Below are positions 9,044 to 38,174 of a stretch of 64,000 nt of DNA, piece after piece. This stretch comes from Spirochaetia bacterium. Lineage in GTDB: Bacteria; Spirochaetota; Spirochaetia; UBA9216. The notes under the pieces were generated by a model. That model worked only from the letters and a program-made list of their open reading frames with translations. It had not been told where the DNA came from and did no database searches. Position numbers and translations under genes: made by a program. Position 1 is the stretch's first letter. Every line of letters starts with the position of its first letter. The stretch covers positions 1,504,001 to 1,568,000 of the forward strand of contig CAXXYH010000003.1 of NCBI GenBank assembly GCA_963677925.2. Reading direction: 5' to 3'.

Positions 9044-9210
9044 GAGCTTCTTGCAAAACTCGGTTAGTTTTGCAAGAAGCTTTGAAGCAAAATTTTACAT
9101 AATTATGTAAATTATTATACAATAAGCAATTGTAAAATTTTCTTCATTTACATTAAGGTAGCAATTTCAAAACTTTTATAGTTTGACTTTCTTAGTTTTG
9201 AAATTGCCTC
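9044..9210. mobile_element. MITE/REP-like non-coding element made of nested inverted repeats
   Basis: 16-bp IR 9045-9060/9066-9081, 18-bp palindrome 9094-9111 and 14-bp IR 9161-9174/9194-9207. The outer ends are related (GAGCTTCTTGCAAAACT vs GAGGCAATTTCAAAACT, 12/17 identical). Confidence 0.5.
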
Positions 9211-10246
9211 ACTGTATACTCTTAAATAGCGCATCAATATTCTCAGGCGGAATATCAGGCAGAATGGCTTCATGACTGGGCGATATTATCAGTCCTGTAG
9301 GAAACAGCTTCTTGAGTTCTGCAACCTTTTTACCTACATCATCCGCATTGCCTTTTACAAGCAGATACTGAGCATCCACCCCGCCGCAGAATGAAACCCT
9401 GTCGCCGAATTCATCCTTCAGTGAATACGGATCCATCCCCTTGGCCAGAGCCTGAATAGGATGCACGGCATCCACACCGCATTCGATCAAATCTTCAATA
9501 ATAGGTCTGATCGAACCGCAGGAATGGTGAATAACCTTCAGCCCGTAACGGTGGGCCTGCTCAACCAGCTTCCTTGTTCCGGGCAGAACAAAATCACGAA
9601 TCATATCTGCCGACAGCATCAGGCTCTCCTGACTGCCCAGATCGTTTCCTATAAGAACGGCATGCAGCTTTCCTTCTGTTGCCTTGTAAAAAATCTCATT
9701 GGCTTCAAGATAGAAATCAAGTATACGGTCTATTACCACCCTGAACATCTCGGGCTCAAGCACCATCTTCATAAGTGCTGTTTCCATTCCGAAGGCTGCG
9801 CAGGCATCCTGAAAGTGGGCGGACCATACAACTCCTAGAACTGCCTTATCTGCAGGCGCTGCTTCAACTGCAGCCGCACATTCAGCTGGATCTATATATT
9901 TTGAAGGCACAGGCCAGTCAAAATCATCTATCTTTGATGGGTCGGAATAATCTTCAAAAAAACCGGCTGCAGTCAGAGTCCGTTCATAATCATCATCCCT
10001 GTCGGTTTCAAAGTCCTTCGCAAAATCAAAGGCGGCATAGATTGCGTTGCTTGTAGGTGAATGGTAAGGCAGTTCCACCGGATAAATATCATCATTAACA
10101 GCCTTAGTCATCTCTTCAATATTACTTATTTTAAAATATTCCAGCAGCGACTGATGGGCATCAGGAACCGGAAGTCCCAGCCAGCTTGCCGGATAATCAA
10201 CCGGCTTTCTCTCTATCGTTGCATAAAATCGTTCCAAATGCGTCAT
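9209..10246 (-). CDS. Uroporphyrinogen decarboxylase/MtaA-CmuA family (putative corrinoid methyltransferase) protein
   Basis: GNDLGSQESL, HHSCGSI, DAVHPIQ, FCGGVDAQ, ISPSHEA, IPPEN. Confidence 0.85.
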   Translation of the reverse strand: MTHLERFYATIERKPVDYPASWLGLPVPDAHQSLLEYFKISNIEEMTKAVNDDIYPVELPYHSPTSNAIYAAFDFAKDFETDRDDDYERTLTAAGFFEDYSDPSKIDDFDWPVPSKYIDPAECAAAVEAAPADKAVLGVVWSAHFQDACAAFGMETALMKMVLEPEMFRVVIDRILDFYLEANEIFYKATEGKLHAVLIGNDLGSQESLMLSADMIRDFVLPGTRKLVEQAHRYGLKVIHHSCGSIRPIIEDLIECGVDAVHPIQALAKGMDPYSLKDEFGDRVSFCGGVDAQYLLVKGNADDVGKKVAELKKLFPTGLIISPSHEAILPDIPPENIDALFKSIQ

Positions 10247-10256
10247 ACTAATCTCC

Positions 10257-11423
10257 TTACAGTTCCGGAATATCGTACTCTCCGAGATTCAGAGGATAGT
10301 TACCGTATTTCCGGACCAGATCTACTACAAATTCATACCTTTCAGCACTTACGTTACTAGGTACGGAATGATCAGACTGAACAATGTATCCGCCTCCCTT
10401 GGCGGCATTCATCTTTGTAAGAACTTCCTGCTTAAGCTGATCAAGCGGAGCGGTTCCCCAGTTCAATGCGTCAATGTTTCCGCAGAAACCCATATCATGC
10501 CCGTACTGTTTTCTAAGCTCGACTACATTCAGGCCCGATTTGGCCTCAAGCGGGTTGTATGCATCAAGCCCCATTTCAATAAAATCCCTGTAAATGGCCG
10601 AGGCATTGCCGCAGCCGTGATATATAACCGGAAGATTCTTAGAGTGACAGTAATCAATTATCGCTTTCACTCCCGGTTTAAAATGCTGTCTCCAAAACTC
10701 CGGAGAAAACAGCATTCCGTTTACATATGCAACATCGCCCCAGATCACCATGCCGTCAAGCATACCGTCGGCAGCCTTAATCTGGGCCTTCGCAAGCTCA
10801 AGGGTAAACTCGTTTACCCGGCTGATAAACCTGCCCAGCTCTTCTGGGTAGAGGCCCATCCAGAGCATCATGTTCTCAGAGCCGATAATCCTCCAGCCTT
10901 CCTCATGTCCTTCACAGACCGAACCGTATACCGGAAAGTCAGGATGGAATGATTTAACAGTATCGATCCAGGGAGGACTGTTCCGTGAGACAACTTCGGA
11001 AACACCTGCAATCTGATTGTCGCCGCCCTTGAAGTATCTGCGCTCATCCCAGGGGTCATCAAATTCAAATGCCATCATTTTATCGATGGTATCGGTTTCA
11101 AAATGTTCAAAATACGGCATCTGCCTTCCGTCCCGATGCCGTATGACAGCTTCAAAACCGGTCCGTACTACCATATCTCCGTCGCTGTCCGATATGATCT
11201 CAAAATCCTTGATATGGGGATCCATATTCGGGGTTGTTGCAACCCAGTCGAGATCATAATGGTAATAGGGACTGGCATCTTTCGGGAGTCCAAGCTCCTG
11301 CTGCCACCGCTGAATAAAGGTAAGCCAGAAGAAGTCGCTTAACGGCACCCTGTCGGGCTCCTTATGCGCCAGAGCGGTATTCATCCTGTTCAGTTTTTTC
11401 AAACAGTTTTCCGTTCTTTTCAC
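10257..11423 (-). CDS. Uroporphyrinogen decarboxylase/MtaA-CmuA family protein
   Basis: EPDRVP, WGDVAY..GMLFSP, YHGCGN, YNPLE, FCGNID, GGGYIVQSDHSVP. Confidence 0.85.
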   Translation of the reverse strand: MKRTENCLKKLNRMNTALAHKEPDRVPLSDFFWLTFIQRWQQELGLPKDASPYYHYDLDWVATTPNMDPHIKDFEIISDSDGDMVVRTGFEAVIRHRDGRQMPYFEHFETDTIDKMMAFEFDDPWDERRYFKGGDNQIAGVSEVVSRNSPPWIDTVKSFHPDFPVYGSVCEGHEEGWRIIGSENMMLWMGLYPEELGRFISRVNEFTLELAKAQIKAADGMLDGMVIWGDVAYVNGMLFSPEFWRQHFKPGVKAIIDYCHSKNLPVIYHGCGNASAIYRDFIEMGLDAYNPLEAKSGLNVVELRKQYGHDMGFCGNIDALNWGTAPLDQLKQEVLTKMNAAKGGGYIVQSDHSVPSNVSAERYEFVVDLVRKYGNYPLNLGEYDIPEL

Positions 11424-11448
11424 CGCTTACCTCCGTCCGTTTACTATA

Positions 11449-11485
11449 GCTGACCGCGGCAGCTGCTTTTGCCGCCGCAGTCAGC
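11449..11485 (-). other. Intercistronic stem-loop after the binding-protein gene (probable mRNA stabiliser)
   Basis: GCTGACTGCGGCGGC-aaaagca-GCTGCCGCGGTCAGC with two G:U pairs and no U-tract. Confidence 0.65.
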
Positions 11486-11499
11486 AATGTTCGTATCTC

Positions 11500-12702
11500 C
11501 TACCACTGAGGAGGATAGAATTCTTCTACGTCGTCGATTGTGATCATGTGCTGAGGCAGGTAGCGTACAGGAGGAATGTCCTTTCCGTTGAACCAGTCAG
11601 CAGCTGTTTTTACGGCAAGGGCGCCGTCGCCTTCTGCAGTCTGATATGTAATAGCATAGAGTTTTCCGTCTTTAACGAGGTCCATACCGACCTTACTGTT
11701 ACCGGCTGCAACTACTACAACATCTTCACGTCCTGCTTTCTTGAGAGCTTCAAAGATTCCAAGAGCCTGGGCTGAATCGTCAGCTGCACAGATACCTTTA
11801 AGATCATCGCCGAATCTTGTGAGCCAGTCGGAAACAAGCTGCATAGTCTTGTCTGCCTCAAATCCTGGAGCCTGCTTGTCAAGAACCTTGATATTGGGAG
11901 CGTACTGTGAGAGTTCGGAAATTGGTCCCCAGCATCTTGAGAAGTAGGGAGATCCGCCGGGTGCATGCTGAATGTATGCAACTCCGCCTTCCTTGCCGAG
12001 CTTATCTGCCCAGAGTTTAGAAAGGATTCTGAACTGGCCGAAATCATCAGGACCTGTCCATGCAATTGCGTAATCCATTGCCTTGGCATCCGGAAGTGTA
12101 TTGAAAAGAATTAAAGGAACGCCGGCCTGATTGATTTTTCTTGCCTGCTGAGGTGCAGTTTTTGCATCAAGCGGGATAAGAAGGATCATGTCGGGTCTTT
12201 CATTGATTGACTGGTCGATCATCTGGTTCTGCACTGCAAGGTCCCAGTTAGGTGACAGTATTTTTATATCCATCTGGTATGCATCGGCAACCTTCTGAGC
12301 TCCGGTTGTACATGCGGTTGTCCAGGGATGGTCACCGTGCACGATCATGATAACCTTTTTACCAATTGCTCCGTCTTTGGGTGATTCAGGAATATTTGTT
12401 TTATTTGTAATCCATCCGGCAAATTCCATATCCCACCAGTGCAGGGGATCAGTTTCAGGAAGTGCTGCGGGATCAGCCGGTCTGGCAGGTACTTCGCGTA
12501 CTGCTCCGCCTACTTTAATAAGCGGCTGGCCGTCTGCTGCTGTAAGCGCATCAGCTGTCTTATCAAGAGCGAGTGAAGCTTCAAGATTACCGCTTCCGCC
12601 TGATGTTTTTGTTTCCTGCTGTCCTCCGGCAGTCAGGTTTCCTGCAACTGTAAAAACAAGAAGCAGGGCGCAGAAAAGAGTTAAAAGTCTTTTCATTTTC
12701 AT
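11500..12702 (-). CDS. Sugar ABC transporter substrate-binding protein (RbsB-like, CUT2)
   Basis: Signal peptide plus AGGQQE. Periplasmic binding protein type I motifs (QNQMIDQSI, AGVPLILFN, GICAADDSAQALG). Confidence 0.9.
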   Translation of the reverse strand: MKMKRLLTLFCALLLVFTVAGNLTAGGQQETKTSGGSGNLEASLALDKTADALTAADGQPLIKVGGAVREVPARPADPAALPETDPLHWWDMEFAGWITNKTNIPESPKDGAIGKKVIMIVHGDHPWTTACTTGAQKVADAYQMDIKILSPNWDLAVQNQMIDQSINERPDMILLIPLDAKTAPQQARKINQAGVPLILFNTLPDAKAMDYAIAWTGPDDFGQFRILSKLWADKLGKEGGVAYIQHAPGGSPYFSRCWGPISELSQYAPNIKVLDKQAPGFEADKTMQLVSDWLTRFGDDLKGICAADDSAQALGIFEALKKAGREDVVVVAAGNSKVGMDLVKDGKLYAITYQTAEGDGALAVKTAADWFNGKDIPPVRYLPQHMITIDDVEEFYPPQW

Positions 12703-12733
12703 CCTCCAATTTTAATGGTTATTCCAAAAGGTA

Positions 12734-13762
12734 TTAAACCTGATTTTGGACTGCTGCCAGTTCCTTCATCAGTTCAGGACGCTGGCCGATAACTTTTTCG
12801 TGTTTGTATGCAACATAGGCTTCATACAGAACAACGAAGGCAAGAATAATTCCCGCTATAAAAATCTTTACTTCATTTCCGAGACCGAAAAGGATAATTC
12901 CATTATAAAGAACATCTAGCATCAGGATTGCTACGAAGGTCTTGAATACTCCGCCTTTTCCGCCGGACATTGAAGTTCCTCCGATTATTGTAGCGGATAG
13001 AACATACATAAGTGAGGAAGTTCCCATATTAAGGGTTGCTGCGGCACTTTCCATTGCGAAAAGAACTCCGCCTATACCGGCCATAACACCGGAGATCACA
13101 AAGGCTGCTATTGTATATTTATCAGTATCGATACCGGCAAGCCAGGCAGTCTGGCTGTTTCCGCCGACCATGTAGAAGTTACGTCCCGTTCTGGTCTTCC
13201 GCATGAAAATTGATGCTCCGGCAACAAGTAATAAAGTTATAATAACCCTGGGTGTTGCAAGGGGAAAAATCATCTTAGCCAGCCAGTCAGACACCGCAAA
13301 GGCATCGTCTGTAGAAAGACTAACCGAGTTTCCCCCTGTAAAGGTATAAATTGCGCCCTGCAGCACAGTCATCATTCCAAGGGTTACAATAAACGAACTG
13401 ATTTTAGCCTTTGACACAAGCAGTCCGTTTATCAGTCCGATTAGACCTCCTGCTATAATTGCCGCAGGAACTGAACCGCCGTATCCCAGGTATTCCTTGA
13501 GACCAAGCCCCAGGATTCCGGTGAATGTAACAATTGTACCAATTGAAAGATCAAGCTGACCGACAATAAGGATTACCGTAAAGCCGATTGCAACAACTGC
13601 GTTCATAGACATAGTCCGCATTATCGTGGTCAGGTTGAACACGTTGAAGAAACGCGGAGCAAAGAGAGCCATGATAATGAACACTATTCCGAACAGAATG
13701 TATATTCTGTTTTTATCTACTATAGTTAAAATTGAATTCTTCTTGTTTTTAAGCATCGTCAC
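12734..13762 (-). CDS. Sugar ABC transporter permease (RbsC-like)
   Basis: GQLDLSIG, FIVTLG, TGRNFYMVGGN, ATIIGGTSMSGGKG. Confidence 0.93.
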   Translation of the reverse strand: MTMLKNKKNSILTIVDKNRIYILFGIVFIIMALFAPRFFNVFNLTTIMRTMSMNAVVAIGFTVILIVGQLDLSIGTIVTFTGILGLGLKEYLGYGGSVPAAIIAGGLIGLINGLLVSKAKISSFIVTLGMMTVLQGAIYTFTGGNSVSLSTDDAFAVSDWLAKMIFPLATPRVIITLLLVAGASIFMRKTRTGRNFYMVGGNSQTAWLAGIDTDKYTIAAFVISGVMAGIGGVLFAMESAAATLNMGTSSLMYVLSATIIGGTSMSGGKGGVFKTFVAILMLDVLYNGIILFGLGNEVKIFIAGIILAFVVLYEAYVAYKHEKVIGQRPELMKELAAVQNQV

Positions 13763-14810
13763 GCCCCAGAGATCTCAGAGATTTAGCATTTATACCGACT
13801 ACGATTATGAATATCGCTCCGCGGATCATGTCCTGAGAGAAGGTTCCGACACCGAGCAGTGTCATGATATTATTCATAAGTCCGATTATAAGCACACCGC
13901 CGAGCACTCCGATTATTGAACCGCGTCCGCCGGCAAGGGTCATTCCGCCGATAACTATTGCGGTTACAGCCTTAAAATCGTAGCCTTCACCGTTGTAGTA
14001 GGCACCGACCCTGGAAAGCGAAGTTATTGTCAGCCCGCCGAGTGTGGCTGTAAGTGCACAGATAATAAAGCTTAGTCCGATAACTCTTTCAACATTAACA
14101 CCTGAAAACTTTGCTGCCTTTCTTGAGGCTCCGGTCATCTTAAGCTGCTGGCCGTACTTTGTTTTCTTCATTATAAAGTTCATTACAATCACAAGGATCA
14201 CTAGAAAGACTACAGGCAGTGCTATCTTGTTGAAGAAGCGCAGACGGTAGATGTTGTCAAACAGCTCACTGGCACGCTGAGTTTTTGCGATCATATCCGG
14301 ATAGATCTGTTTGTTGACCCATACCAGCCTTATAACACCAAGTGTTACATAGTTAACAGCCAGGGTCCAGATTATCGGATTTGCCTTGAACTTTCCTACT
14401 GCAACTGCATTTATAAGACCAATAACTATGCCGGTTGCAAAGGCGGCAATCAGGGCAGGTACAAAGCCGAACTGAAGCATCTGAACGGCAACGATACCGG
14501 TCAGCGCCATGGTTGTCGGAACCGACAGGTCGGCATAGTGGCCGGAATAAGTGATAAAGGCCATTCCGACAGCTACGATTCCAAGCATTGAAACCGCATC
14601 AATAATGTTGAGCATATTCTGCGGAGTCATGAAGTTGTTGATGACTCCCAGAAGCTGCAGAATGATTCCGAGAATCAGGAACATTGCCGCAACTGCATAA
14701 ATGCCTATGCCGTGAAAAATCTTTCCTATAATGCTGTAACTTGTTGCCCTTCTGTCTGCGGGCTGCGTTACCTTCTGTTTTTCCTTTTCCATCACCTGTG
14801 TCTCACTCAT
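13749..14810 (-). CDS. Sugar ABC transporter permease (RbsC-like), second subunit
   Basis: ADLSV, AAKFSGVNV, AIVIGGMTLAGGRGS. Confidence 0.93.
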   Translation of the reverse strand: MSETQVMEKEKQKVTQPADRRATSYSIIGKIFHGIGIYAVAAMFLILGIILQLLGVINNFMTPQNMLNIIDAVSMLGIVAVGMAFITYSGHYADLSVPTTMALTGIVAVQMLQFGFVPALIAAFATGIVIGLINAVAVGKFKANPIIWTLAVNYVTLGVIRLVWVNKQIYPDMIAKTQRASELFDNIYRLRFFNKIALPVVFLVILVIVMNFIMKKTKYGQQLKMTGASRKAAKFSGVNVERVIGLSFIICALTATLGGLTITSLSRVGAYYNGEGYDFKAVTAIVIGGMTLAGGRGSIIGVLGGVLIIGLMNNIMTLLGVGTFSQDMIRGAIFIIVVGINAKSLRSLGRDDA

Positions 14811-16315
14811 TATATTCCCTCACCATTAGCCGCGAGGAGAACGCTTTCCTCTGTACAGGCAGCCTGATCCATTTCGTGAATGATATGTCCCTGCCTCATA
14901 ATCAGAACCCTGTTTGAAAGAGAGACAAGCTCAGGCAGGTCTGAAGATATAAGCAGTACGGTAGTACCGTTGGCTGCCAGTTTTTCGATAGACTCATGGA
15001 TTGTCATCTTTGCACCGATATCAACACCGCGGGTCGGCTCATCCAGAATGAGGACCTTCGGATCGAGGGCTATCCATTTGGCAAGAAGCACCTTCTGCTG
15101 ATTTCCTCCGGAGAGGTTGCCGGTAATTCTTGATGCATCAGGCGGATAAATAAGCAGTTCCTTTATAAGCTCCTGCATCCGCTCAAGTCCCTCATTCTCA
15201 TGGTAGATTCCGGCCCTGGTAAGCTTGGGGACTATGCCGGCAAGGATGTTCTCCTTGATATCAAGTCTTAATGCAAGGCCTTCGGTTTTGCGGTTCTCGG
15301 TAAGATAGGTTATTCCCTCATCAAGGGCCTGAGCCATCGTTTTGGGATTGATTTCTTTACCGTCTATAAACACCTTCCCTTCATGGCGGTCATCAAGCCC
15401 TACAAGAACCCTTGCAATCTCGCTTCGTCCGGCACCCGAAAGTCCGCAGATACCGAGGATCTCACCCTTCTTTGCTGTAAAGGATACATTATGGAAGAAA
15501 CCGTGCCGGGAAAGGTTCTCAACCTTCAGCCGTTCCTCATCTGTTGCATGGCTTTCATGAGAGTAGAACTCCTTAACAGAGTGTCCGACCATCATCTGAA
15601 CCAGTTCTTCACTGCTTACAGTATCTATATCACGGGTATCAATCTTTTTACCGTCCCGCATTACAGTTACCCTGTCGGCCACCTCAAAAATCTCAGGCAG
15701 GTGGTGCGAAATATAGATGATTGCAAGTCCGCGATTTTTCAGCTTTTTAATGATGTCAAAAAGCCGTTCAACCTCTTCACGCGAAAGAGCTGATGTAGGT
15801 TCATCCATTACCAGGATACAGGGATTGTTTCCAAGCGCCTTGCCTATCTCGACAAGCTGACTCTCATGCTGACTTATTTCTTCGATTTCAAGATCAGGAT
15901 CAAGATGTTCAAGACCAACCTGTTTCAAACAGCGCTTAGTCTCTTTATAGATTTTTTCCTTATCAAGAAAGAGTCCCTTCTTCGGAAGTCTGCCGACCAG
16001 AACATTTTCTGAAATACTCAGAGGCAATGCCAGGCTGAGTTCCTGGTAAATCATTTCTATTCCGTTTTTTTTAGACTGCACCGGTGAGTGCAGAGTCGTC
16101 TCTTTTGAGCCTATGAATATACTGCCGGTGTAATCATTAAAAGAACCGGCTATTATCTTCATAAGCGTTGATTTTCCTGCTCCGTTTTCACCGATAAGGG
16201 CATGAACCTCTCCGGCACGGACATCAAAATCAACATTGTCTACAGCAAGTGTTCCGGGAAAACTCTTGCTGACCCCCTTCATCTGAAGGGCTATTCCAAA
16301 ATTCTCACTACTCAC
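14810..16315 (-). CDS. Sugar ABC transporter ATP-binding protein (RbsA/MglA-like)
   Basis: GENGAGKSTL, MDEPTSAL, LSGGNQQKV, DEPTRGVDIGAK. Confidence 0.96.
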   Translation of the reverse strand: MSSENFGIALQMKGVSKSFPGTLAVDNVDFDVRAGEVHALIGENGAGKSTLMKIIAGSFNDYTGSIFIGSKETTLHSPVQSKKNGIEMIYQELSLALPLSISENVLVGRLPKKGLFLDKEKIYKETKRCLKQVGLEHLDPDLEIEEISQHESQLVEIGKALGNNPCILVMDEPTSALSREEVERLFDIIKKLKNRGLAIIYISHHLPEIFEVADRVTVMRDGKKIDTRDIDTVSSEELVQMMVGHSVKEFYSHESHATDEERLKVENLSRHGFFHNVSFTAKKGEILGICGLSGAGRSEIARVLVGLDDRHEGKVFIDGKEINPKTMAQALDEGITYLTENRKTEGLALRLDIKENILAGIVPKLTRAGIYHENEGLERMQELIKELLIYPPDASRITGNLSGGNQQKVLLAKWIALDPKVLILDEPTRGVDIGAKMTIHESIEKLAANGTTVLLISSDLPELVSLSNRVLIMRQGHIIHEMDQAACTEESVLLAANGEGI

Positions 16316-16345
16316 ATCAAACCCTCATTCCTGTTTAATGCACCC

Positions 16346-16666
16346 TCAGTCAAGATGGTACATTTCTTCCATGTCCGCCCACCATTCGCCATCCTTTCTT
16401 GTTTCAAGCGGGCTCTGCAGCGGTTTCATTATTGCCCACCATTCCTGGGTCTTTGAATCATCCGCCATCTTCTGCATGTCAGCCTCAAAATCTTCGCCGA
16501 CATATTCAAAATAAGCAAAAAGCAGTTCATCTTTAAAAAAGATGGTATAGTTCTTAATATTGCATTCAGTTATTTTGCTGTTTATCTCGGGCCATGCGTT
16601 TGCATGGTACTGCTTATACTTCTCGTAATTCTCTTTTTTAAGGCCGATAACCTGTCCGAATCTCAT
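16346..16666 (-). CDS. rhaM: L-rhamnose mutarotase (RhaM/DUF718) family; possibly L-fucose mutarotase
   Basis: Y..YHANAWPEI, IKNYTIF, LFAYFEY, TQEWW, WWADMEE. Confidence 0.85.
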   Translation of the reverse strand: MRFGQVIGLKKENYEKYKQYHANAWPEINSKITECNIKNYTIFFKDELLFAYFEYVGEDFEADMQKMADDSKTQEWWAIMKPLQSPLETRKDGEWWADMEEMYHLD

Positions 16667-16689
16667 AACACTGTCTCCGTATTAATCCT

Positions 16690-16717
16690 ATCCTAACACG
16701 GAATTTCAGGCTGTCAA
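16690..16717 (-). promoter_or_regulatory. Sigma-70 promoter of the rhaM-ABC-UroD operon
   Basis: TTGACA-16-TAGGAT with a TG extended -10. Confidence 0.6.
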
Positions 16718-16873
16718 GTTTTTTTGTTAAAATTTTATGCAATATAGCAATATTTTTATCTTGTTTTTACCTTATTTTAGCAAAGATATGTATTTTTAGG
16801 CCGTATTTATCAAATAATTGGCTATTTATAGCGTATTATTGCTAAAATTTTGATAAAATTATTTTAAAAAAGA

Positions 16874-16901
16874 TTGACAGAAACCCAAAGGATGATAAAA
16901 T
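16874..16901 (+). promoter_or_regulatory. Sigma-70 promoter of the LacI regulator
   Basis: TTGACA-16-TAAAAT with a TG extended -10. Confidence 0.65.
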
Positions 16902-16930
16902 ACTGCTAAATTGATTTGCTGGATGAATAA

Positions 16931-17962
16931 ATGAAACCTAAATTGCGTGATGTTGCAGAAAAAGCCGGAGTGTCCCTGACCGCGGCCTCGATGGCTCTCT
17001 CAGAGACAGGCAGAATATCAGATGAGACAAGAGCCAAGGTGTTTGCAGCCGCAGAAAAGCTCGGCTACAAGCGTAAAGAAAAAATCAACAGGATATCCGA
17101 CTTCGATCACGTCTGCGTACTGATAAACGGAGACTACGAATGGGCTTTTATATTCAAATTCATCAGACCCATAATAGAATCCATCGAAAGTGATTTGAAA
17201 GCAGTAGGTCTGAACCTGATTCTCATACCCATATATCACCGAGAAACACCCCAGCAGATGTTTGACAAGATAAAGTCGTCCGGCTCAGGAGCAGTAATTT
17301 CGCTTCACTTCGGAAACGATGAGCTTTTCGCCCGTCTGGAAACAGCCGGGATGATGGTAATAACGGTGATGAATTCTGAGTTTCACGATAAATACTACTC
17401 AATTTGTGTAGATGACTTTCAGGGAGCATACGAAGCAGGAAATCATCTGATAAGACTCGGACATCGCAAGATTGCATATGTCGGCATACAGAGAATTGAT
17501 CTTCCAGCACTTTCAAACGACCGCTTTATCGGATTCAAAAAATCGATGGACGTAAACAGAATTGAACTCCCGCCGGAGTATATATTCGAGTTTGAAACCG
17601 GCCACATGGATAAGCTCCGCAAGGATCTCTATCCTGTTTTCAACCCCGAAAACAAGGTAAAACCAACAGCTGTTTTCTGTCTTGATGATGATCTGGCCTT
17701 ACGGGTAATCCTTGCACTCAAAGAACTTACGCTCTCAATCCCAGAAGATGTATCAATTATCGCCCCCGGTGATGTTCTTGATTACAACATGCCATACATT
17801 CCGCCAATTACCACTATGAAGATAGACACTGCTTATATGGGCAAAATAATTGTGCAGATGCTTATAAACAGGATTGAGAACACTCCCAACAACCAGCATG
17901 GACTCAAAGTTCAGCAGCACCTGGTGGAAAGGGGCTCCTGCCGAAGTATTTCTCAGCAGTAG
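16931..17962 (+). CDS. LacI-family transcriptional regulator
   Basis: LRDVAEKAGVSLTAASMAL HTH and a sugar-binding domain (LGHRKIA, PTAVFC, IPEDVSII). Confidence 0.93.
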   Translation: MKPKLRDVAEKAGVSLTAASMALSETGRISDETRAKVFAAAEKLGYKRKEKINRISDFDHVCVLINGDYEWAFIFKFIRPIIESIESDLKAVGLNLILIPIYHRETPQQMFDKIKSSGSGAVISLHFGNDELFARLETAGMMVITVMNSEFHDKYYSICVDDFQGAYEAGNHLIRLGHRKIAYVGIQRIDLPALSNDRFIGFKKSMDVNRIELPPEYIFEFETGHMDKLRKDLYPVFNPENKVKPTAVFCLDDDLALRVILALKELTLSIPEDVSIIAPGDVLDYNMPYIPPITTMKIDTAYMGKIIVQMLINRIENTPNNQHGLKVQQHLVERGSCRSISQQ

Positions 17963-19254
17963 TCCTGAACAACCCGGGAGGCTATAGTCTCCCAGTCCCA
18001 CAGCCTTTCAGGATGGTATTTCACCGTTGAAATATCCTTCATGATAAGCTCAACACTGCACTTCCCTTCTGTTCTGTCCAGAAACTCCCTTATTTCAGCT
18101 TCTGCCCGCCTGGGGTCCCAGCTGCTTTCGGCAAGGATTGCAGGGTTGGGCTTCCGGCTCATCACGTAGCGATCACCGAAATTTTCAACAGCCCGTTCCG
18201 TATCGGACCAGGGGGAGACTGAAACCTTCCTGAGGTTCGGAATGCGCCGCAGTATTTCAGCCTTGCCGTCAAGAGGTTCACAGCATCCGTAGTAGGTATA
18301 CTTCCAGCGCTTAAGCCAGCGCATATCATGTTCAATTGCGAAATCCCAGTGCATGGACGGGGAAACTTCACTGAATATCTGGGCGTTCGAACAGCCCCAC
18401 ATGTTATGCGGCTTAACGTATGCTGGATCATAATCATCTCCCGGCATATCACTGATGTAGCCGTAACCGCCGGAGCCTATTCTTGTATTGCCGCAGTCAA
18501 GGGAGAGCAGGTTCTGCTGCACAAACTGATCCAGTTCAGCCATCCACGCATCCACCATCCGATCTACAAAGGCGTGAACCATATCAGGCCTCATGGCCAG
18601 ATCCATCATAGCCTCCGAAACGCCCCACCAGCGAATTAAATAATCCCAGGGAGTAAACCAGATATGGCTCTGACCGACCTTCTGCACAGGAATTATTCCG
18701 TCAAAGATTTCAGTCATTGCATTAAAGCTGTACTCAGTTGCCTTTTTAAAATGTGTGACCACCGGCATTCTTATCTTCTGCAGGTCATCCATGTCTTTTA
18801 TCTGGATTTCAAAATGCCTTGAATAGATATCATTTTCTTCATCGGTTTTTGCGACATCGACTTTTTCGATAATTCCGAAGTCGGTACTGTGAATAACCAG
18901 GGGGCATTCGATGCGGGGATTTACTATCATGTCTCCGGGCATGTGATTCCACTGGTAAATAATTCTTCGAAGTCTTGTTTCAAGCTCCTGTGCCCAGGGA
19001 TGCCTGGTTTTCAGCGTAAGTTCATCATCGACATTCATCTCATGCCATGGAATCTCATTTATCCAGACAAGAGGGCGGGGATTTTTCAGATCATTCAGCC
19101 GGGTCCAAAGTTGTGCCCTATGGGAATTAACCGGGTCATCGGCAATTTCTGCAATTCGGCTGCCAAGCCTTTTTAGAACATCAATCTCATCTCTATCAAG
19201 AATAATTTCCTCTTCTACCGGAATCTCCGGCCTGTGGCTTGGATCATGCAGCAT
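17953..19254 (-). CDS. Divergent UroD/methyltransferase-like TIM-barrel protein
   Basis: GVSEAMMDL..RPD.VH, SEVSPSM, YYGCCEPLD, IPNLRKVSVSPW, SRKPNPA. Confidence 0.6.
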   Translation of the reverse strand: MLHDPSHRPEIPVEEEIILDRDEIDVLKRLGSRIAEIADDPVNSHRAQLWTRLNDLKNPRPLVWINEIPWHEMNVDDELTLKTRHPWAQELETRLRRIIYQWNHMPGDMIVNPRIECPLVIHSTDFGIIEKVDVAKTDEENDIYSRHFEIQIKDMDDLQKIRMPVVTHFKKATEYSFNAMTEIFDGIIPVQKVGQSHIWFTPWDYLIRWWGVSEAMMDLAMRPDMVHAFVDRMVDAWMAELDQFVQQNLLSLDCGNTRIGSGGYGYISDMPGDDYDPAYVKPHNMWGCSNAQIFSEVSPSMHWDFAIEHDMRWLKRWKYTYYGCCEPLDGKAEILRRIPNLRKVSVSPWSDTERAVENFGDRYVMSRKPNPAILAESSWDPRRAEAEIREFLDRTEGKCSVELIMKDISTVKYHPERLWDWETIASRVVQDYC

Positions 19255-19417
19255 ATCAGACCTCCCCTGTTAAAAACTACCCCCTTCATTATAGCAGCGT
19301 GAACTGCCGAATCGTCAAGGAAGATCTTTCAGGGGAGGTTTAACTGAACACTGCTGATATTTACAGTACTGCTGCAGGTGACTGAAGCGGACAGGTCAAG
19401 CCAGTATGCAATAAAGC

Positions 19418-20596
19418 TTAACCGGCAACTCCTGATTGTTTTCTTCTGTTTTCAAAACCTGCCAGAAAAAAAGCTGAGGCAAGACCTACTATCAGCATTA
19501 CGACTGAAGCATAGAGAAATATATTACTGATTGCAGTATTTATCATAATTCTTCCGTTTACCATTGTCCCCAGAGCGCCTCCAACAAACATGTTAAAGGA
19601 AGCCAGAGACATTGCCGTCCCGCGCATTGAGGGAAGTTTCATCTGTGCAGTTGAAACCAGCGTTGTCTGCAGGAAAATGAAAGCAATACCGAAACTGAAC
19701 AGTCCAAGACAGAGCATTAAAACACCGGAAAACCTTGATAAAATATACAGCCCTGCAAAACCGAGAATTCCGGCTGCTGCAAGAAAACCGTGTTTTAACA
19801 ACTTCCGCATTTTCGGTGCAATTCTTCCGCCGAATACTGTACCCACCCCGAAGCAGGATAAAATCAATCCTACCTGGAGAACAGATAATCCGGTAGCCTG
19901 CTGGAGCAGCTTACCTGAATAGGTAAAACTTCCAAAAACTGCAAAGCCGACAAAGAAAATGGTAACAACAAGCCGCATAAACCTGGCGTTCGACAGCGGC
20001 GTCTTATAGGCAGTTACAAAATTAAGCCTGTCCACTACTCCGCTGTCTTTTTCAAGCATCCTGGTCATTATCACAGCCGCCGCCAGCTCTCCGATACCGT
20101 AGACAATATAAACAAGTCTCCATGAGCCGAAATACGAAAGAATACCGCCAATGGCTGTAGCTGTAGCGCCGCCGAGAAACATCATCCCCATAACCTTCCC
20201 GAGTGCACCCTGCCGTTGCTTATCATCAAAAGACTGACCGACCAGGGCCATTGTTACAGGAAATATTCCCGCTCCGAAAGCTCCGTTGAAAGCTCTGAAG
20301 ACCATCAGACTCTGCAGATTAAATGCAAACCCACCCAGAATACTGAATACAGCGGTACCGAAGGCTGCGATACGGATAATCCGGACTTTTCCGAACCTGT
20401 CTGAAAGCGGACCGAAAATCAATGTAAAAAGTCCGAACGATAGCATATATGCAGTTACAGAGTATGCGGCATGCTGGACTGTAAGGTTCAAATCTTCGGA
20501 TATTTTCAGCAACAAAGGTGCCGCTGCATAATTATCTCCGTTAGTCATAAATGCCATAAGACCGAGAATCATCAGCATTGAGTTCTTCTTATTCAT
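19418..20596 (-). CDS. MFS transporter (drug/H+ antiporter-like)
   Basis: About 12 TMs, motif A GPLSDRFGKV, FRAFNGAFGA. Confidence 0.9.
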   Translation of the reverse strand: MNKKNSMLMILGLMAFMTNGDNYAAAPLLLKISEDLNLTVQHAAYSVTAYMLSFGLFTLIFGPLSDRFGKVRIIRIAAFGTAVFSILGGFAFNLQSLMVFRAFNGAFGAGIFPVTMALVGQSFDDKQRQGALGKVMGMMFLGGATATAIGGILSYFGSWRLVYIVYGIGELAAAVIMTRMLEKDSGVVDRLNFVTAYKTPLSNARFMRLVVTIFFVGFAVFGSFTYSGKLLQQATGLSVLQVGLILSCFGVGTVFGGRIAPKMRKLLKHGFLAAAGILGFAGLYILSRFSGVLMLCLGLFSFGIAFIFLQTTLVSTAQMKLPSMRGTAMSLASFNMFVGGALGTMVNGRIMINTAISNIFLYASVVMLIVGLASAFFLAGFENRRKQSGVAG

Positions 20597-20966
20597 CAGT
20601 TTTCCCTATTATTTCACCAATCTCACTGCTGACACGCTTAATAATTTCATCGGTAATTTCTGTTTTACCTTTTTCCACTCCGTAATCAGTCATAACAAAC
20701 TGTGTATAGGGCAGGTTTTTATTTTCAAATATTTTCTTTCCGCACCCTACCTTGCATCCGTCCATAATAAAATTCCCGTCTGACTCTTTTGCAGAGATCA
20801 GAAATCCTGAAAGATCCGCACCGACTGCAGCCAGACAGGTTCCGGCAGCAACCCCTTCTGACTTCAGCGCTCTAAAAACCTGATCAGCAAGATACCCGGT
20901 ATTGGCTGCACCTGAACATGAGTATATGAGCCTGACCTTTTTATCATCACCGCAACAGCATGACAT
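20589..20966 (-). CDS. DGC-domain putative zinc-binding protein
   Basis: CCC N-terminus, YSCSGAANTG, CLA, IMDGCKVGCGKK. Confidence 0.85.
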   Translation of the reverse strand: MSCCCGDDKKVRLIYSCSGAANTGYLADQVFRALKSEGVAAGTCLAAVGADLSGFLISAKESDGNFIMDGCKVGCGKKIFENKNLPYTQFVMTDYGVEKGKTEITDEIIKRVSSEIGEIIGKTDE

Positions 20967-20979
20967 TTGATACTCCTTT

Positions 20980-21027
20980 TTTGTTTAAAAGTTTCTTTAT
21001 TAAGAAACTTTTAAACAAAGATGTCAA
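20980..21027 (-). promoter_or_regulatory. Promoter with an 18-4-18 perfect inverted-repeat operator upstream of DGC-MFS
   Basis: TTTGTTTAAAAGTTTCTT-tatt-AAGAAACTTTTAAACAAA (20980-21019), with a minus-strand TTGACA at 21027-21022. Confidence 0.75.
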
Positions 21028-21071
21028 GTATCTATCCTGATGCAACCTGGCTATTTTAAGTATTCATTAAC

Positions 21072-21101
21072 TTGCCAACTTTTAAAAATGAGTGCTATAC
21101 T
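21072..21101 (+). promoter_or_regulatory. Sigma-70 promoter giving a probable leaderless LacI transcript
   Basis: TTGCCA-18-TGcTATACT. ATG 21108 lies 7 nt downstream and there is no SD. Confidence 0.65.
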
Positions 21102-21107
21102 CGGGCC

Positions 21108-22094
21108 ATGGCTATCACAGTAAAAGAAGTTGCAGTTCATGCAGGTGTTTCAACAGCTACGGTATCAAGAGTCCTGAATAACGACCCCGGTATAAAACCG
21201 TCCACAAGGGAAAAAGTCCTGAAAGCGATCAAAGACACCGGCTACAGAATGAACCGTGCGGCAAGAAGCCTGAAAACTTCCAGGACAGGAACTGTAGGCC
21301 TGCTTGTACCGGAACTTGTAAACGACTTTTTTATGACTGTGGCAAAGGGCGTTGAAGATGAGCTTCGGGCCTACGGCTACGGGGTAATTCTCTGCAATGC
21401 AAATGAAAACACAGATGACGAGAAAGACCGGATTGAACTTCTTATAGAGCAGTGTGTAGATGGTGTGATTATCATTCCGGTCGGTTCCAAAGGAAATCAT
21501 TTTAATCTTTTAAGCAGGACGGAAACCCCGGTTGTACTTGTCGACAGACTGGTAGAGGATTTCTCAAGTGACGCAGTACTGGCAGATAACATAAGCGGAG
21601 CGTTTTCGGCAGTAGAAAAACTGATAGCAGACGGCTGCAGGCGCTTCGGTTTTATCGGCGGGAGCCTTGATCTCTCAAACTTCCGTGAACGGTATGAAGG
21701 CTTTCAGAAGGCCCTTGATGCCCACGGAATTAAACCTGAGCCTGAAATTATCAAGTTCGGAGATGTTCACATAGAATCCGGCTACAGATTCATGAAAGAG
21801 CTGATGGAAGCCCCTTCCCCGCCTGAAAATGTATTTATAGCCAACTACTTTCTTCATGTAGGAGCGGCAAAATTTCTGTTCGAACACAAAAATGAACTCC
21901 CCTGTGATATCAGGATCGCCGGTTTTGACGATATGGCCCTCTCTTCAATACTCGGATTTTCAAGTGTAACGGTTTCACAGCCTATGCTTGAGATGGGAAA
22001 GACAGCAGCGAATCTGCTTATGAGACGGATAAAGAAGGAAACAGAAGAATGCTGCTCGATAATAAGACTTGAAACCAGCCTCATTGAGCATTGA
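21108..22094 (+). CDS. LacI-family transcriptional regulator (probable fucI repressor)
   Basis: MAITVKEVAVHAGVSTATVSRVLN and hinge NRAARSLK. The ORF-track TTG 21072 is the -35 box. Confidence 0.95.
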   Translation: MAITVKEVAVHAGVSTATVSRVLNNDPGIKPSTREKVLKAIKDTGYRMNRAARSLKTSRTGTVGLLVPELVNDFFMTVAKGVEDELRAYGYGVILCNANENTDDEKDRIELLIEQCVDGVIIIPVGSKGNHFNLLSRTETPVVLVDRLVEDFSSDAVLADNISGAFSAVEKLIADGCRRFGFIGGSLDLSNFRERYEGFQKALDAHGIKPEPEIIKFGDVHIESGYRFMKELMEAPSPPENVFIANYFLHVGAAKFLFEHKNELPCDIRIAGFDDMALSSILGFSSVTVSQPMLEMGKTAANLLMRRIKKETEECCSIIRLETSLIEH

Positions 22095-22168
22095 TTTTCA
22101 ACCCATCCTGAATAATACTTAAATTTACAGACAGATTTTTCTTGATTTTTATTTTAAATCGGTGGATA

Positions 22169-22192
22169 ATAAATGTAATCGATTACATTTAT
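22169..22192. promoter_or_regulatory. LacI-type operator upstream of fucI
   Basis: Perfect 24-bp palindrome ATAAATGTAATCGATTACATTTAT with a central CG, overlapping the end of TTGATT-17-GATAAT (22142-22170). Confidence 0.85.
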
Positions 22193-22228
22193 ACTCTTGA
22201 TTATCGACAGTTTAAGGAGTTTTTTCTG

Positions 22229-24034
22229 ATGAGTACAGGAAAGGAATTCAAAAACAGACTAAAAGGCGAAATGCCTAAAATCGGCATACGTCCTGTTATT
22301 GACGGAAGGATGAGGGGTGTACGCGAATCACTCGAAGTCCAGACTATGAACATGGCTGCATCAGCCGCAAAATTAATTACTGAAAATCTCAGGCATCCCA
22401 ACGGACTTCCTGTTGAATGCGTTATTTCTGATACAACCATAGGCGGAGTTGCAGAAGCTGCTCAGTGCGCTGAGAAATTCGCCAGAGAAGGTGTAGGTGT
22501 TTCACTTACAGTAACCCCCTGCTGGTGCTATGGGACCGAGGTAATGGATGCCGATCCCAACCTGCCGAAAGCTGTATGGGGATTTAACGGTACAGAACGC
22601 CCGGGTGCGGTTTATCTTGCCGCAGCTCTTGCCGGTTATGCCCAGAAGGGACTGCCAGCATTCGGTATCTACGGACGTGATGTTCAGGACTCCGACGATA
22701 CATCAATTCCCGAAGACGTAAAAGGCAAACTGCTCTCATTCTCAAAGGCCGGACTGGCTGTAGCCTACATGAAGGGTAAATCATACCTTTCAATCGGCGG
22801 AACCTCTATGGGTATTGCAGGATCAATTGTAGACCAGGATTTTTTCCAGGAATATCTTGGAATGCGGACCGAAGTAGTCGACATGAGCGAAGTTGCCCGC
22901 CGTGTCGAAGAGGATATCTACGACAAAGATGAGTTTAAAATAGCTCTTGAATGGGTAAAAAAGAACTGTAAAGAGCAGGAAGACACTGTTAATCCTCCAG
23001 AGTGGAGACGCTCCCCCGAACAGCGCCAGAGCGACTGGGAATATGTAACCAAGATGGTTATGATAGGCCGCGACCTCATGGTAGGCAATCCCAAGCTTGC
23101 AGAGATGGGATATGGAGAAGAGGCCATGGGCCGCAATGCAATAGCAGGCGGATTTCAGGGCCAGAGGTCATGGACCGACCACTACCCCAACGGCGACTTC
23201 ATGGAAACCATGCTCAATACATCATTCGACTGGAACGGAATACGTGAAGCCTTCGTTTTCGCCACCGAAAATGATGCACTTAACGCTGTCCCCATGCTTT
23301 TCGGTCATCTTCTTACCGACACTGCACAGATCTTCAGCGATGTAAGAACTTACTGGAGCCCTGAAGCAATCGAAAGAGTAACAGGATGGAAACCTGAAGG
23401 TAAGGCTGCTGACGGCCTTATTCACCTGATAAACTCAGGCTCAACAACCCTTGACGGAACAGGCGAACAGACGGGTAAAGACGGCAAGCCTGTAATGAAA
23501 CCCTTCTGGGACATCACTGAAGATGAGGTTAAGAAATGTCTTGAGGCAACAGAGTTCTGCGTCGGCGACGGCGGATACTTCAGAGGCGGCGGCTATTCAA
23601 CTGACTTCCTCACTAAAGGTGATATGCCTATTACTATGAGCCGTGTGAATATCATCAAGGGACTGGGCCCTGTTCTTCAGCTTGCAGAAGGCTGGACTGT
23701 AACAATTCCCGAGAAGGCGCATGACACACTCGATGTCAGAACAAATCCGACCTGGCCTACAACCTGGTTTGCTCCAAGAGTTACAGGAAAGGACGGGGCT
23801 TTCAAGGATGTATATTCTGTAATGGCAAACTGGGGTGCAAACCACGGCGCCATAAGCTATGGACATATCGGCGATAAACTGATAACACTATGTTCTATGC
23901 TTAGGATTCCTGTATGCATGCATAACGTTGAAGATGAAAGAATCTTCAGGCCTGCAGTATGGAATTCATTCGGTATGGACAAAGAAGGTGCAGACTACAG
24001 AGCCTGCGGAAACTTCGGACCAATATATAAATAA
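22229..24034 (+). CDS. fucI: L-fucose isomerase (D-arabinose isomerase)
   Basis: [65 protein letters not shown] 22229 has an AAGGAG RBS. Confidence 0.97.
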
Positions 24035-33104: not shown

Positions 33105-33112
33105 TTCTTCTC

Positions 33113-34138: not shown

Positions 34139-34150
34139 TAATTACTCCAT

Positions 34151-35185: not shown

Positions 35186-35234
35186 TTCTGCTTCCTTTCT
35201 CAAATTCCGATGATCAGATTAACATTTCAAAGAA

Positions 35235-35263
35235 ACCCTAACTCCGACCGGTTAATCTGTCAA
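35235..35263 (-). promoter_or_regulatory. Internal sigma-70 promoter for lacI and the downstream genes
   Basis: TTGACA-17-TAGGGT, with the -35 overlapping the upstream stop codon. The spacer contains AACCGGT. Confidence 0.55.
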
Positions 35264-36297: not shown

Positions 36298-36319
36298 AAC
36301 TCAGACCTTATCCCGTACC

Positions 36320-37615: not shown

Positions 37616-37616
37616 A

Positions 37617-38117: not shown

Positions 38118-38139
38118 TATATTATTTCCTTGTTTAAAC

Positions 38140-38162: not shown

Positions 38163-38174
38163 AAAATTAGTCTA

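Follow-up and report, generated by a model that had tools for sequence, protein, structure and literature searches.

The subject of this paper is a sugar-uptake locus in a stretch of 64,000 nucleotides from a Spirochaetia bacterium (NCBI GenBank assembly GCA_963677925.2, contig CAXXYH010000003.1, positions 1,504,001 to 1,568,000 of the forward strand), which is referred to as the window and corresponds to G000:C3:1504001-1568000 in the analyzed genome G000 (5.04 Mb, 4 contigs). The locus combines a mutarotase, an ATP-binding cassette (ABC) importer and L-fucose isomerase with three proteins assigned to the uroporphyrinogen decarboxylase (URO-D) fold, designated UroD_A, UroD_B and P0003, for which a role in the demethylation of methylated sugars is considered. 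O-Methylated sugars, including 2-O-methyl-fucose, 2-O-methyl-xylose, 3-O-methyl-rhamnose and 6-O-methyl-galactose, are common in pectin rhamnogalacturonan II (RG-II) and in algal and microbial polysaccharides, and the O-methyl group of a sugar blocks its normal catabolism. To our knowledge, no route is established by which such sugars are handled anaerobically in guts or sediments. The open reading frames (ORFs) of the window and the paralogs in the same genome were scanned with Pfam and NCBIfam profiles, the scores being judged against the curated cut-offs, and the locus contains the following features (window coordinates, strand, description).

9209-10246, minus: UroD_A, URO-D-fold enzyme encoded by the final gene of the operon; 345 aa; PF01208 79.8 bits (cut-off 23.9), C-terminal half alone aligned
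10257-11423, minus: UroD_B, second URO-D-fold enzyme; 388 aa; PF01208 74.6 bits (cut-off 23.9), C-terminal half alone aligned
11500-12702, minus: substrate-binding protein (SBP) of a CUT2 ABC importer; Peripla_BP_4 128.1 bits, residues 119-374; signal peptide and N-terminal extension of about 115 residues
12734-13762 and 13749-14810, minus: two CUT2 permeases; BPD_transp_2 114.4 and 122 bits; best NCBIfam model AraH-like, below cut-off
14810-16315, minus: double-cassette ABC ATPase; ABC_tran 180.9 bits, two stretches
16346-16666, minus: RhaM-family 6-deoxyhexose mutarotase, first gene of the operon; PF05336 108.4 bits
16667-16930, no strand: divergent control region, a 264-base spacer with promoter-like sites by consensus match
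16931-17962, plus: LacI-family regulator 1 (LacI-1), divergent from the operon; LacI and Peripla_BP_3
17953-19254, minus: P0003, third and strongly divergent URO-D-fold protein; 433 aa; conserved YYGCCE replaces the HxC motif
19418-20596, minus: MFS_1 transporter upstream of P0003; PF07690 158.8 bits; retained beside P0003 in L010
20589-20966, minus: DGC-domain protein, first gene of the DGC-MFS-P0003 unit; PF08859 83.5 bits; no NCBIfam match
20980-21019, no strand: 40-base palindrome (18-base arms, 4-base spacer) read from the sequence between the DGC gene and LacI-2, candidate operator
21072-22094, plus: LacI-family regulator 2 (LacI-2); LacI and Peripla_BP_1
22142-24034, plus: L-fucose isomerase FucI; NF008220 1083.7 bits (cut-off 775); TIGR01089 1066.9 bits (cut-off 850)

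The genes from rhaM to UroD_A (9209-16666, minus strand) are considered one operon because the intergenic gaps and overlaps span -14 to 76 bases, and the ORFs and the Pfam and NCBIfam matches confirm the preliminary description, in which a rhaM-ABC-SBP-UroD-UroD operon under a divergent LacI had been reported. Conservation of the neighborhood, which had been suggested as a check, was indeed found: the order rhaM-ABC-SBP-UroD_B-UroD_A recurs in other Spirochaetia genomes (L010, L013, L045, L048), and the arrangement is therefore not due to chance. Homologs of LacI-1 (39-100% identity) likewise adjoin UroD_A in 8 of the 13 Spirochaetia loci outside the window (L010, L011, L013, L046-L049 and L051). 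The first gene belongs to the RhaM family according to PF05336, and it scores 49.3 bits on the equivalog TIGR02625, which is under the cut-off of 99.6; the closest solved relatives of the SBP are the CUT2 sugar or polyol SBPs 4RS3 and 5HKO (E about 1e-25). The control region contains the two best promoter-like sites of the region, which face outward (16874-16901, plus strand, 11/12; 16717-16690, minus strand, 10/12), and the promoter and terminator scan as a whole gave 33 promoter-like sites in the region against 27.1 in shuffled sequences (sd 5.5), which is no excess. An alpha/beta-hydrolase gene comes after UroD_A in the window (8020-8979, minus strand), and such genes occur at or near UroD_A in four loci including the window (L010 11098-12057, L044 8911-9855, L027 8601-9509); the product may be an esterase that acts on an acylated version of the sugar.

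The DGC, MFS and P0003 genes constitute a separate minus-strand unit that is divergent from LacI-2 and fucI. A third UroD-like gene, a second LacI and fucI had been described here before and are present, and the genes for the major facilitator superfamily (MFS) transporter and the DGC-domain protein had been overlooked. Because the FucI model match begins at residue 41, the true start of this protein probably lies some 40 codons further in. P0003 has no Pfam or NCBIfam match, even at E 10. Its nearest Atlas clusters carry a URO-D-domain label (score 0.99), its family profile aligns with that of UroD_A in hhalign with a probability of 72% (E 3.3e-5), and the top 25 PDB matches of its AlphaFold2 (AF2) model, which has a predicted local distance difference test (pLDDT) value of 82.8, are all UroD or MtaA; the concurrence of these comparisons, which are in part model-based, supports the assignment of P0003 as a divergent URO-D barrel. 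The earlier statement that no glycosidase, kinase, aldolase or heme gene is adjacent was upheld for the span 9209-24034 and the genes just outside it, and elsewhere the genome contains one GH29 gene and eight class II aldolase-family matches.

The hemE equivalog TIGR01464 (cut-off 302.95 bits) does not match UroD_A and P0003 and gives 26.1 bits for UroD_B, and on these profile scores none of the three proteins is HemE. UroD_A and UroD_B score higher on the MtaA/CmuA models TIGR01463 (43.0 and 37.7 bits; cut-off 235.4) and NF004889 (46.9 and 41.5 bits; cut-off 244). The genome holds 13 PF01208 matches in total (the Bacteroides thetaiotaomicron genome, scanned as a control, also gives a PF01208 match), and the 12 paralogs with any NCBIfam match are all best on MtaA/CmuA-type models and all under the curated cut-offs; the remaining paralog, at L007, has no NCBIfam match at the 1e-10 threshold. 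The strongest PF01208 match (183 bits, full length) adjoins a corrinoid protein and scores 67.5 bits on hemE and 142.8 bits on the MtaA/CmuA model. That hemE score is the best among the NCBIfam-scanned PF01208 proteins of the genome, against a cut-off of 303, and G000 may, by this measure, be without a canonical uroporphyrinogen decarboxylase.

The AF2 model of UroD_A (pLDDT 91.8) has Methanosarcina mazei MtaA (4AY8; E 8.5e-14, template modeling score 0.71) as its best PDB fold, followed by HemE structures and then by MetE and BHMT, and the UroD_A family profile gives marginal matches alone when compared with PDB sequences (E 0.05-0.07). In MtaA (4AY7) the zinc ligands are a His-x-Cys motif and a C-terminal Cys. 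When aligned to 4AY7 with phmmer, the H-x-C-G-N stretch of MtaA stands opposite HHSCG in UroD_A and YHGCG in UroD_B, and where MtaA has its C-terminal Cys, UroD_A has His325-Glu326 and UroD_B has Asp-His. Residues H241, C243, D259, H262, H325 and E326 of UroD_A, with the motif H241-S-C243-G, are invariant in 50 of 50 family sequences, UroD_B has HGCG and a later DHS motif, and a pattern HxCG ... NP[VI]Q ... xH[NES] is common to most sugar-locus paralogs of the genome. From these motifs we infer that UroD_A would carry an alkyl-transfer metal site of a variant His/Cys/His(Glu) type.

UroD_A, UroD_B and P0003 each form their own well-supported clade in a quick maximum-likelihood tree of 39 rows, apart from the MtaA-like proteins of corrinoid cassettes. 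The families are large: UroD_A has 3285 homologs at E<=0.001 (the best 120 being 66-98% identical and about 342 aa long, with Spirochaetaceae, Monoglobales, Clostridia and Mahella as named sources), UroD_B has 5700 at E<=1e-20 (identities of 66-100% for the best 120), and P0003 has 6567 at E<=0.001 among the 8000 candidates scored (top matches 64-80% identical, with Spirochaetes, Vallitalea, Ruminiclostridium, Holophagae, Hydrogenedentes and Planctomycetota as top sources). None of the sources of those searches gives a functional name to any of the three families.

A scan of species-representative genomes yielded 21 UroD_A loci, and the complete comparison comprised 14 Spirochaetia loci (the window, L010, L011, L013, L014 and the class sample L043-L051) and 17 non-Spirochaetia loci (Bacteroidales, Prolixibacteraceae, Roseivirgaceae, Lentisphaeria and Victivallales). 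ORFs in the comparison loci were called by a simple longest-ORF rule and compared by BLAST with the window proteins, and 116 of them were scanned with Pfam. In 9/14 Spirochaetia loci a CUT2 ABC operon ends with UroD_A, and RhaM is encoded in 7/14 Spirochaetia loci as well as next to UroD_A in L016, L022 and L027 from other phyla. Among the 17 non-Spirochaetia loci, a GH29 fucosidase was found in 7, a RhaT-family permease in 4, GH95 in 3, RhaM in 3 and a rhamnosidase-like gene in 2, at least one of these five being present in 11/17; the remaining six are mostly short contigs. A regulator of the AraC family of about 280 aa often comes after UroD_A. For P0003, a metagenome scan left 80 loci, of which 67 had an ortholog of more than 50% identity, and the four genes on each side of these 67 orthologs include GH29-like genes (24 loci), URO-D-like genes (14), CUT2 ABC parts (13), RhaM (9) and RhaT (7), the URO-D-like neighbors having their best matches to UroD_A and UroD_B. 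From these neighboring genes it is concluded that the UroD_A, UroD_B and P0003 families belong to the metabolism of fucose- or rhamnose-type glycan sugars.

FucI stands beside these genes in this genome and in 2/67 P0003 loci alone, and a canonical FucI is encoded somewhere in 4/5 UroD_A-bearing genomes of other phyla, on which ground UroD_A was rejected as a substitute for an absent fucose isomerase. UroD_B adjoins UroD_A in 5/14 Spirochaetia loci, and L011 probably represents a sixth adjacency that is masked by a longer opposite-strand ORF, as one UroD_B homolog lies on a contig equal in length to that of L011. An obligatory role of UroD_B as second methyltransferase of UroD_A was also rejected, as at E<=1e-40 the genomes G196 and G301 (that of L023) yielded no UroD_B match and G137 yielded a partial one of 46%; UroD_B is probably a second specificity.

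Several UroD_A loci outside the Spirochaetia link the family to corrinoid-dependent methyl transfer. The gene for RACo, an activase of corrinoid proteins, is present in 3/17 of them, and the components of a demethylase are encoded together in L023 and partly in L015 and L016. In L016, UroD_A, RhaM and RACo follow each other with gaps of 2-33 bases and precede a 356-aa ORF, a sugar MFS transporter and a rhamnosidase-like gene. The 356-aa ORF falls in the MtaA-like clade of the quick tree on a long branch and is kept as a lead; its hhalign probability to the UroD_A profile is just 4%, though a GIHHCG stretch aligns. In L023, on a Bacteroidales contig of 1.95 Mb, the gene order is RACo and a 222-aa corrinoid protein, an AraC regulator, a formate transporter, FTHFS, a methyl-tetrahydrofolate (methyl-THF):corrinoid methyltransferase (249.9 bits, cut-off 259), MTHFR, a GHL6-like protein, UroD_A, RhaT, GH95, GH29, an amidohydrolase and a sulfatase, and the span from RACo through GH29, including UroD_A, lies within 16 kb. 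As annotated from sequence, L023 is a complete O-demethylase set with a route from methyl-THF to formate inside a fucoside-utilization cluster.

The distribution of the genes was compared in 301 Bacteroidales and 301 Spirochaetia genomes. In the Bacteroidales, UroD_A (matches of 58-83% identity) is present in 16 genomes and RACo in 19, with an overlap of 11, so that RACo is encoded by 11/16 UroD_A-bearing genomes versus 8/285 others (one-sided Fisher p 7.6e-12, in a sample whose related genomes are not independent and whose metagenome-assembled genomes are incomplete). In the Spirochaetia, where a match at E<=1e-60 was taken as presence of UroD_A, RACo was found in 16/16 genomes with UroD_A, in 41/42 with P0003 (the lone exception being 55% complete) and in 130/301 overall. 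The comparison of P0003 with RACo in the Bacteroidales was uninformative, as P0003 is present in 1/301 genomes alone.

In the present genome, a corrinoid cassette is located on the same contig (L001, G000:C3), about 226 kb from the operon, and the two are not encoded together. A corrinoid protein, an activase of the RACo/AcsV type, CobW and an MtaA-like protein are thereby found in one place, and the lack of corrinoid and activator genes, which the preliminary description had named as counting against its proposal, is not observed. The full content of the cassette (L001 3885-13395) is DUF1847, a GntR-type regulator, a MalK-like ATPase, RACo, CobW, the MtaA-like protein (449 aa), the corrinoid protein and a PocR/AraC regulator, and its two central members are as follows.

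L001 6900-8726, strand n/a: RACo, 608 aa; Fer2 and RACo domains; AcsV-like 412.6 bits (cut-off 800); sole copy in the genome
L001 11208-11843, strand n/a: corrinoid protein, 211 aa; B12-binding_2 and B12-binding; cognate-corrinoid model 190.8 bits (cut-off 215)

The corrinoid protein is the only stand-alone one of the genome in which both B12 domains are well matched; a 308-aa ORF at C3:476147-476638 matches both domains too, B12-binding_2 weakly. The same cassette is found in the UroD_A-bearing genomes G137, G091 (in which the corrinoid protein was not detected by the ORF pass) and G280, and in G461 of the Bacteroidales. The MtaA-like enzyme is the obvious candidate for the methyl acceptor side in this genome. 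MetH is split in this genome into two proteins, one of 360 aa that binds homocysteine and one of 815 aa with the pterin, B12 and activation parts, and the stop and start of the two genes overlap (L055 3662-7188, G000:C4); ORFs of 820-831 aa in related genomes suggest that this split is native to the lineage.

A structure model of UroD_A in complex with the corrinoid protein obtained a score of 0.74, and the best of 3 controls scored 0.01; the mark applied to this score is reached by 58/80 solved complexes and 2/110 mismatched pairs, counts that hold just roughly because custom alignments were used. The contacts agree for at least 93% between the runs, with a partner pLDDT of at least 85, and the predicted interface sets invariant segments around the opening of the barrel of UroD_A (90-92, 154-155 and 293) against the cap helix and B12-binding loops of the carrier (residues 57-64, 102-103 and 178-180). 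As a prediction, the model supports binding of the corrinoid protein by UroD_A.

The deoxysugar contexts, the co-occurrence with RACo, the cassette of the genome and the complex model together make corrinoid-dependent O-demethylation of methylated 6-deoxyhexoses the best reading of this locus of an anaerobic spirochete, and we hold it with reasonable, though far from full, confidence. Demethylation had been proposed in the preliminary description, and it is supported by the vicinity of UroD_A to fucosidases, RhaM, RhaT and RACo, by the Bacteroidales distribution and by the predicted complex. The scheme outlined here, in which the methylation and nature of the substrate, the metal, the direction in which the methyl group moves, its acceptor and the parts played by UroD_B and P0003 are inferred, would start with import of an O-methylated 6-deoxy-L-hexose (methyl-fucose and/or methyl-rhamnose) by the CUT2 ABC system, after which RhaM would equilibrate its anomers. 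UroD_A would act as a zinc-type methyltransferase I (MT I), the metal site of which would bind the ether oxygen while the methyl group moves to the Co(I) of the carrier; in the methanol:corrinoid methyltransferase MtaB, zinc reportedly binds the methanol oxygen in the manner proposed here. UroD_B and P0003 would probably provide sister MT I activities for other positions or sugars. The methyl group would be passed to the corrinoid protein encoded 226 kb away, freed fucose would proceed to FucI, a second methyltransferase would regenerate Co(I), to tetrahydrofolate (THF) in L023 and here possibly via the MtaA-like enzyme, and RACo would repair the oxidized Co(II) carrier.

A number of observations weigh against O-demethylation, and some of them would equally suit metal-dependent non-methyl chemistry of the URO-D proteins (isomerization, epimerization, dehydration or decarboxylation) on a 6-deoxyhexose derivative, with the corrinoid co-occurrence reflecting a shared lifestyle. 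Most loci consist of sugar uptake genes, RhaM and glycosidases, and a corrinoid protein, RACo or methyl-THF methyltransferase was encountered within 10 kb of UroD_A in 0/9 Spirochaetia loci (L043-L051) and within 8 kb of P0003 in 0/67 metagenome loci. The URO-D proteins remain under the curated cut-offs of the MtaA/CmuA methyltransferase models and of hemE, the last zinc Cys of MtaA is replaced in them, P0003 is without the His of HxC, sugar epimerase TIM barrels are among the weaker fold matches, and the genome holds 13 URO-D matches against one corrinoid protein cassette. The methyl group on the substrate is deduced from the gene company of the enzymes, with no direct sequence feature for it, and we know of no demonstration to date that cob(I)alamin cleaves a sugar methyl ether. 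Moreover, the genome encodes no stand-alone pterin-binding methyltransferase, the Pterin_bind matches being DHPS and the split MetH alone, and five related UroD_A-bearing genomes give MetH-sized Pterin_bind matches alone. In the Spirochaetia, nearly all members of the families concerned have RACo, so that its association there has little discriminating power, and the complex model may have passed partly from the memory of the model for other methyltransferase-corrinoid protein complexes. Finally, RACo is missing from 5/16 UroD_A-bearing Bacteroidales genomes and from the genome of L021. On the supporting side, each of the five Bacteroidales genomes encodes a stand-alone B12-binding ORF of 217-239 aa, with a stand-alone MetH-type activation domain (an ORF of 229-350 aa) 1-3 kb from it; in a subsample of 151 Bacteroidales genomes, such a small activation-domain protein is present in 7/8 UroD_A-bearing genomes, and also in 18/143 without UroD_A.

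Non-methyl chemistry is nevertheless judged an unlikely explanation, since RACo, which is known solely as a corrinoid reductive activase, follows UroD_A and RhaM in an operon-like manner in L016 and shares the L023 cluster with UroD_A and a THF methyl branch, RACo is enriched in UroD_A-bearing Bacteroidales (11/16 versus 8/285), the complex model with the corrinoid protein passes, methyltransferases are the best fold and family matches, and FucI is present anyway in 4/5 genomes. The proteins could also be corrinoid methyltransferases with another methyl donor, such as the methoxylated aromatic aglycone of rhamnosides or fucosides, the methanol or methyl esters of pectin, or another methylated sugar or cyclitol. 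Rhamnosidase-like genes are found in L015 and L016, and the rhamnosidase family includes enzymes for flavonoid rhamnosides; a corrinoid protein ends an operon with pectinesterase, GH127, GH2 and esterase genes in the Bacteroidales genome G559; and same-genome paralogs lie in xylose and inositol-type loci. The URO-D-superfamily O-demethylases OdmB and VdmB act on phenyl methyl ethers, as far as the available text of PMC10418091 goes. However, UroD_A closes monosaccharide-type CUT2 operons in the Spirochaetia (9/14 loci) and is paired in the Bacteroidota with RhaT (4/17) and RhaM (3/17), which act on free 6-deoxyhexoses, and the Pfam scans of the window and loci revealed no aromatic-compound transporter or catabolic gene nearby, which makes a donor of this kind improbable. 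That the URO-D genes would be decaying or regulatory passengers without catalytic role in an ordinary fucose or rhamnose locus is extremely improbable, as all three are intact, their families retain 64-88% identity and invariant motifs across phyla, and the gene order is conserved.

HemE has the same TIM-barrel fold and belongs to the same Pfam family as UroD_A and UroD_B, and it differs in that the proteins described here stay under the hemE model and have no heme-pathway context; presumably HemE also is without the Cys-containing metal-type motif that UroD_A and UroD_B possess. The methylcobamide:coenzyme M methyltransferases MtaA, MtbA and MtsA (4AY7, 4AY8) provide the best fold and NCBIfam models, with the HxC aligned, but the scores are 38-79 bits against cut-offs of 235-244, the C-terminal half alone aligns, and the last zinc Cys is changed to His-Glu or Asp-His. 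These enzymes move a methyl group from a corrinoid to a thiol, whereas the direction here would be from substrate to corrinoid. MtaB is a functional analogue, in which zinc polarizes the aliphatic C-O bond for methyl uptake by Co(I), as would also be required for a sugar methyl ether; it reportedly belongs to an unrelated protein family and uses free methanol as substrate.

OdmB and VdmB, the MT I enzymes of the aryl O-demethylases of acetogens, belong to the URO-D superfamily according to the available text of PMC10418091. The aryl O-demethylases (OdmABCD/Vdm, Acetobacterium dehalogenans and relatives) likewise consist of a URO-D MT I, a separate carrier of about 210 aa for the corrinoid, an ATP-dependent activase of the RACo type and a methyltransferase II (MT II) that methylates THF, and all four parts are present in L023 and all except a pterin-type MT II in this genome. 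In contrast to these systems, the substrate would be an aliphatic sugar methyl ether and not a phenyl methyl ether, the enzymes form families of their own (in a tree that took in neither OdmB nor VdmB), and those of the Spirochaetia are wired to sugar importers and a mutarotase, distant from the carrier cassette.

Demethylation of 6-O-methyl-D-galactose by a cytochrome P450 releases formaldehyde. In marine bacteria, a cytochrome P450 encoded in glycan-utilization loci demethylates 6-O-methyl-D-galactose and thereby opens its catabolism, as the accessible part of PMC6292453 describes. That enzyme depends on oxygen and differs in class and in sugar from the present system, which would be oxygen-free and would conserve the methyl group. 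The genome cassette is also similar to the type 1 mlp clusters in the available text of PMC10418091, as both contain an MtaA-like protein, a corrinoid protein together with a Ram/RACE-type activase, and no THF methyltransferase; the mlp clusters contain genes for Mlp2 and Mlp3 at a minimum, against a single MtaA-like gene plus CobW in the present cassette. For the mlp clusters, metabolism of methyl-sulfur or methyl-selenide compounds has been proposed (Kountz and Balskus, PMC10418091), and the words "sugar" and "carbohydrate" are absent from the main text of that paper in its available form. In the full-text literature, coverage of which largely leaves out subscription journals, no description of corrinoid- or URO-D-dependent sugar demethylation was found, and the oxygen-dependent P450 for 6-O-methyl-galactose (PMC6292453, as available) was the only sugar demethylase encountered.

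A wider reading, which we put forward tentatively and consider somewhat doubtful, is that UroD_A, UroD_B and P0003 are the tip of a large unrecognized radiation of URO-D-fold, metal-dependent corrinoid methyltransferases, which would serve anaerobes to demethylate many O-methylated sugars and cyclitols via one shared carrier and activase cassette. In that case, methyl-fucose or methyl-rhamnose would be the substrate at the present locus, and methyl-xylose and methyl-inositols would be those of the same-genome paralogs beside xylAB and inositol-type genes. The methyl ethers of glycans, including those of pectin RG-II and of exopolysaccharides from algae and microbes, would in that event constitute a hidden methylotrophic pool in guts and sediments, the methyl group being conserved via THF to formate and ATP, as L023 suggests. 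For the main reading of the locus, new elements would be the carbohydrate methyl ethers as substrates, the three enzyme families, and their wiring into importers and glycan loci across at least four phyla. Such a role would assign a function to three very large unnamed families with thousands of homologs each, would add carbohydrates to the aryl ethers, amines, thiols and methanol that corrinoid methyltransferases use, and would tie glycan breakdown to B12 demand and one-carbon metabolism in Bacteroidales, Spirochaetia, Victivallales and Clostridia.

Further URO-D paralogs and neighboring genes were observed. At L007 (9062-14526), a 423-aa URO-D paralog is encoded beside an AraC regulator, a XylB xylulokinase (559 bits) and a XylA xylose isomerase (669 bits), and this locus would fit a methyl-xylose counterpart of the fucose locus. 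Four other paralogs of the genome, which are mutually 29-53% identical, are located at L003 9262-10524, L004 9037-10275, L005 8994-10259 and L006 10013-11263; those at L004, L005 and L006 lie directly beside CUT2 sugar ABC genes, and L003 has none adjacent. These four loci contain GFO/IDH/MocA oxidoreductases, xylose-isomerase-like TIM barrels and ROK or LacI regulators, with IolB- and IolD-like genes at L003, and methylated cyclitols or keto-sugars are possible substrates of the paralogs.

Two additional paralogs are present in the window itself. The fourth URO-D paralog (31941-33104, 387 aa), which has KHSDG in place of HxC, heads a minus-strand run (31941-39164) that also includes two alcohol dehydrogenases of the Zn-dependent type, a LacI regulator and the TRAP transporter DctPQM; judged by its genes, this run resembles a locus for polyols or sugar acids that has a URO-D-fold enzyme of its own. 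The fifth paralog (44072-45088, 338 aa, NHCCG) adjoins a carboxylate transporter of the MatC/CitMHS type, the two together spanning 44072-46469.

In the Bacteroidales genome G559, a single contig of 4.12 Mb without RACo, the operon that ends with the corrinoid protein reads SASA esterase-GH127-pectinesterase-GH2 (L148 123-11114), and a stand-alone MetH-type activation domain is encoded 2 kb from the corrinoid protein, which places a B12 carrier inside a pectin-type glycan locus. Between the sugar loci of the window, plus-strand genes at 39451-44048 encode a small protein, a PapD-like chaperone, a 794-aa protein without Pfam match and an SCPU-domain protein, and together look like a fiber system of the chaperone-usher type. 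Finally, two very long minus-strand ORFs, of 1970 aa and 708 aa, occupy the region 54397-62419.

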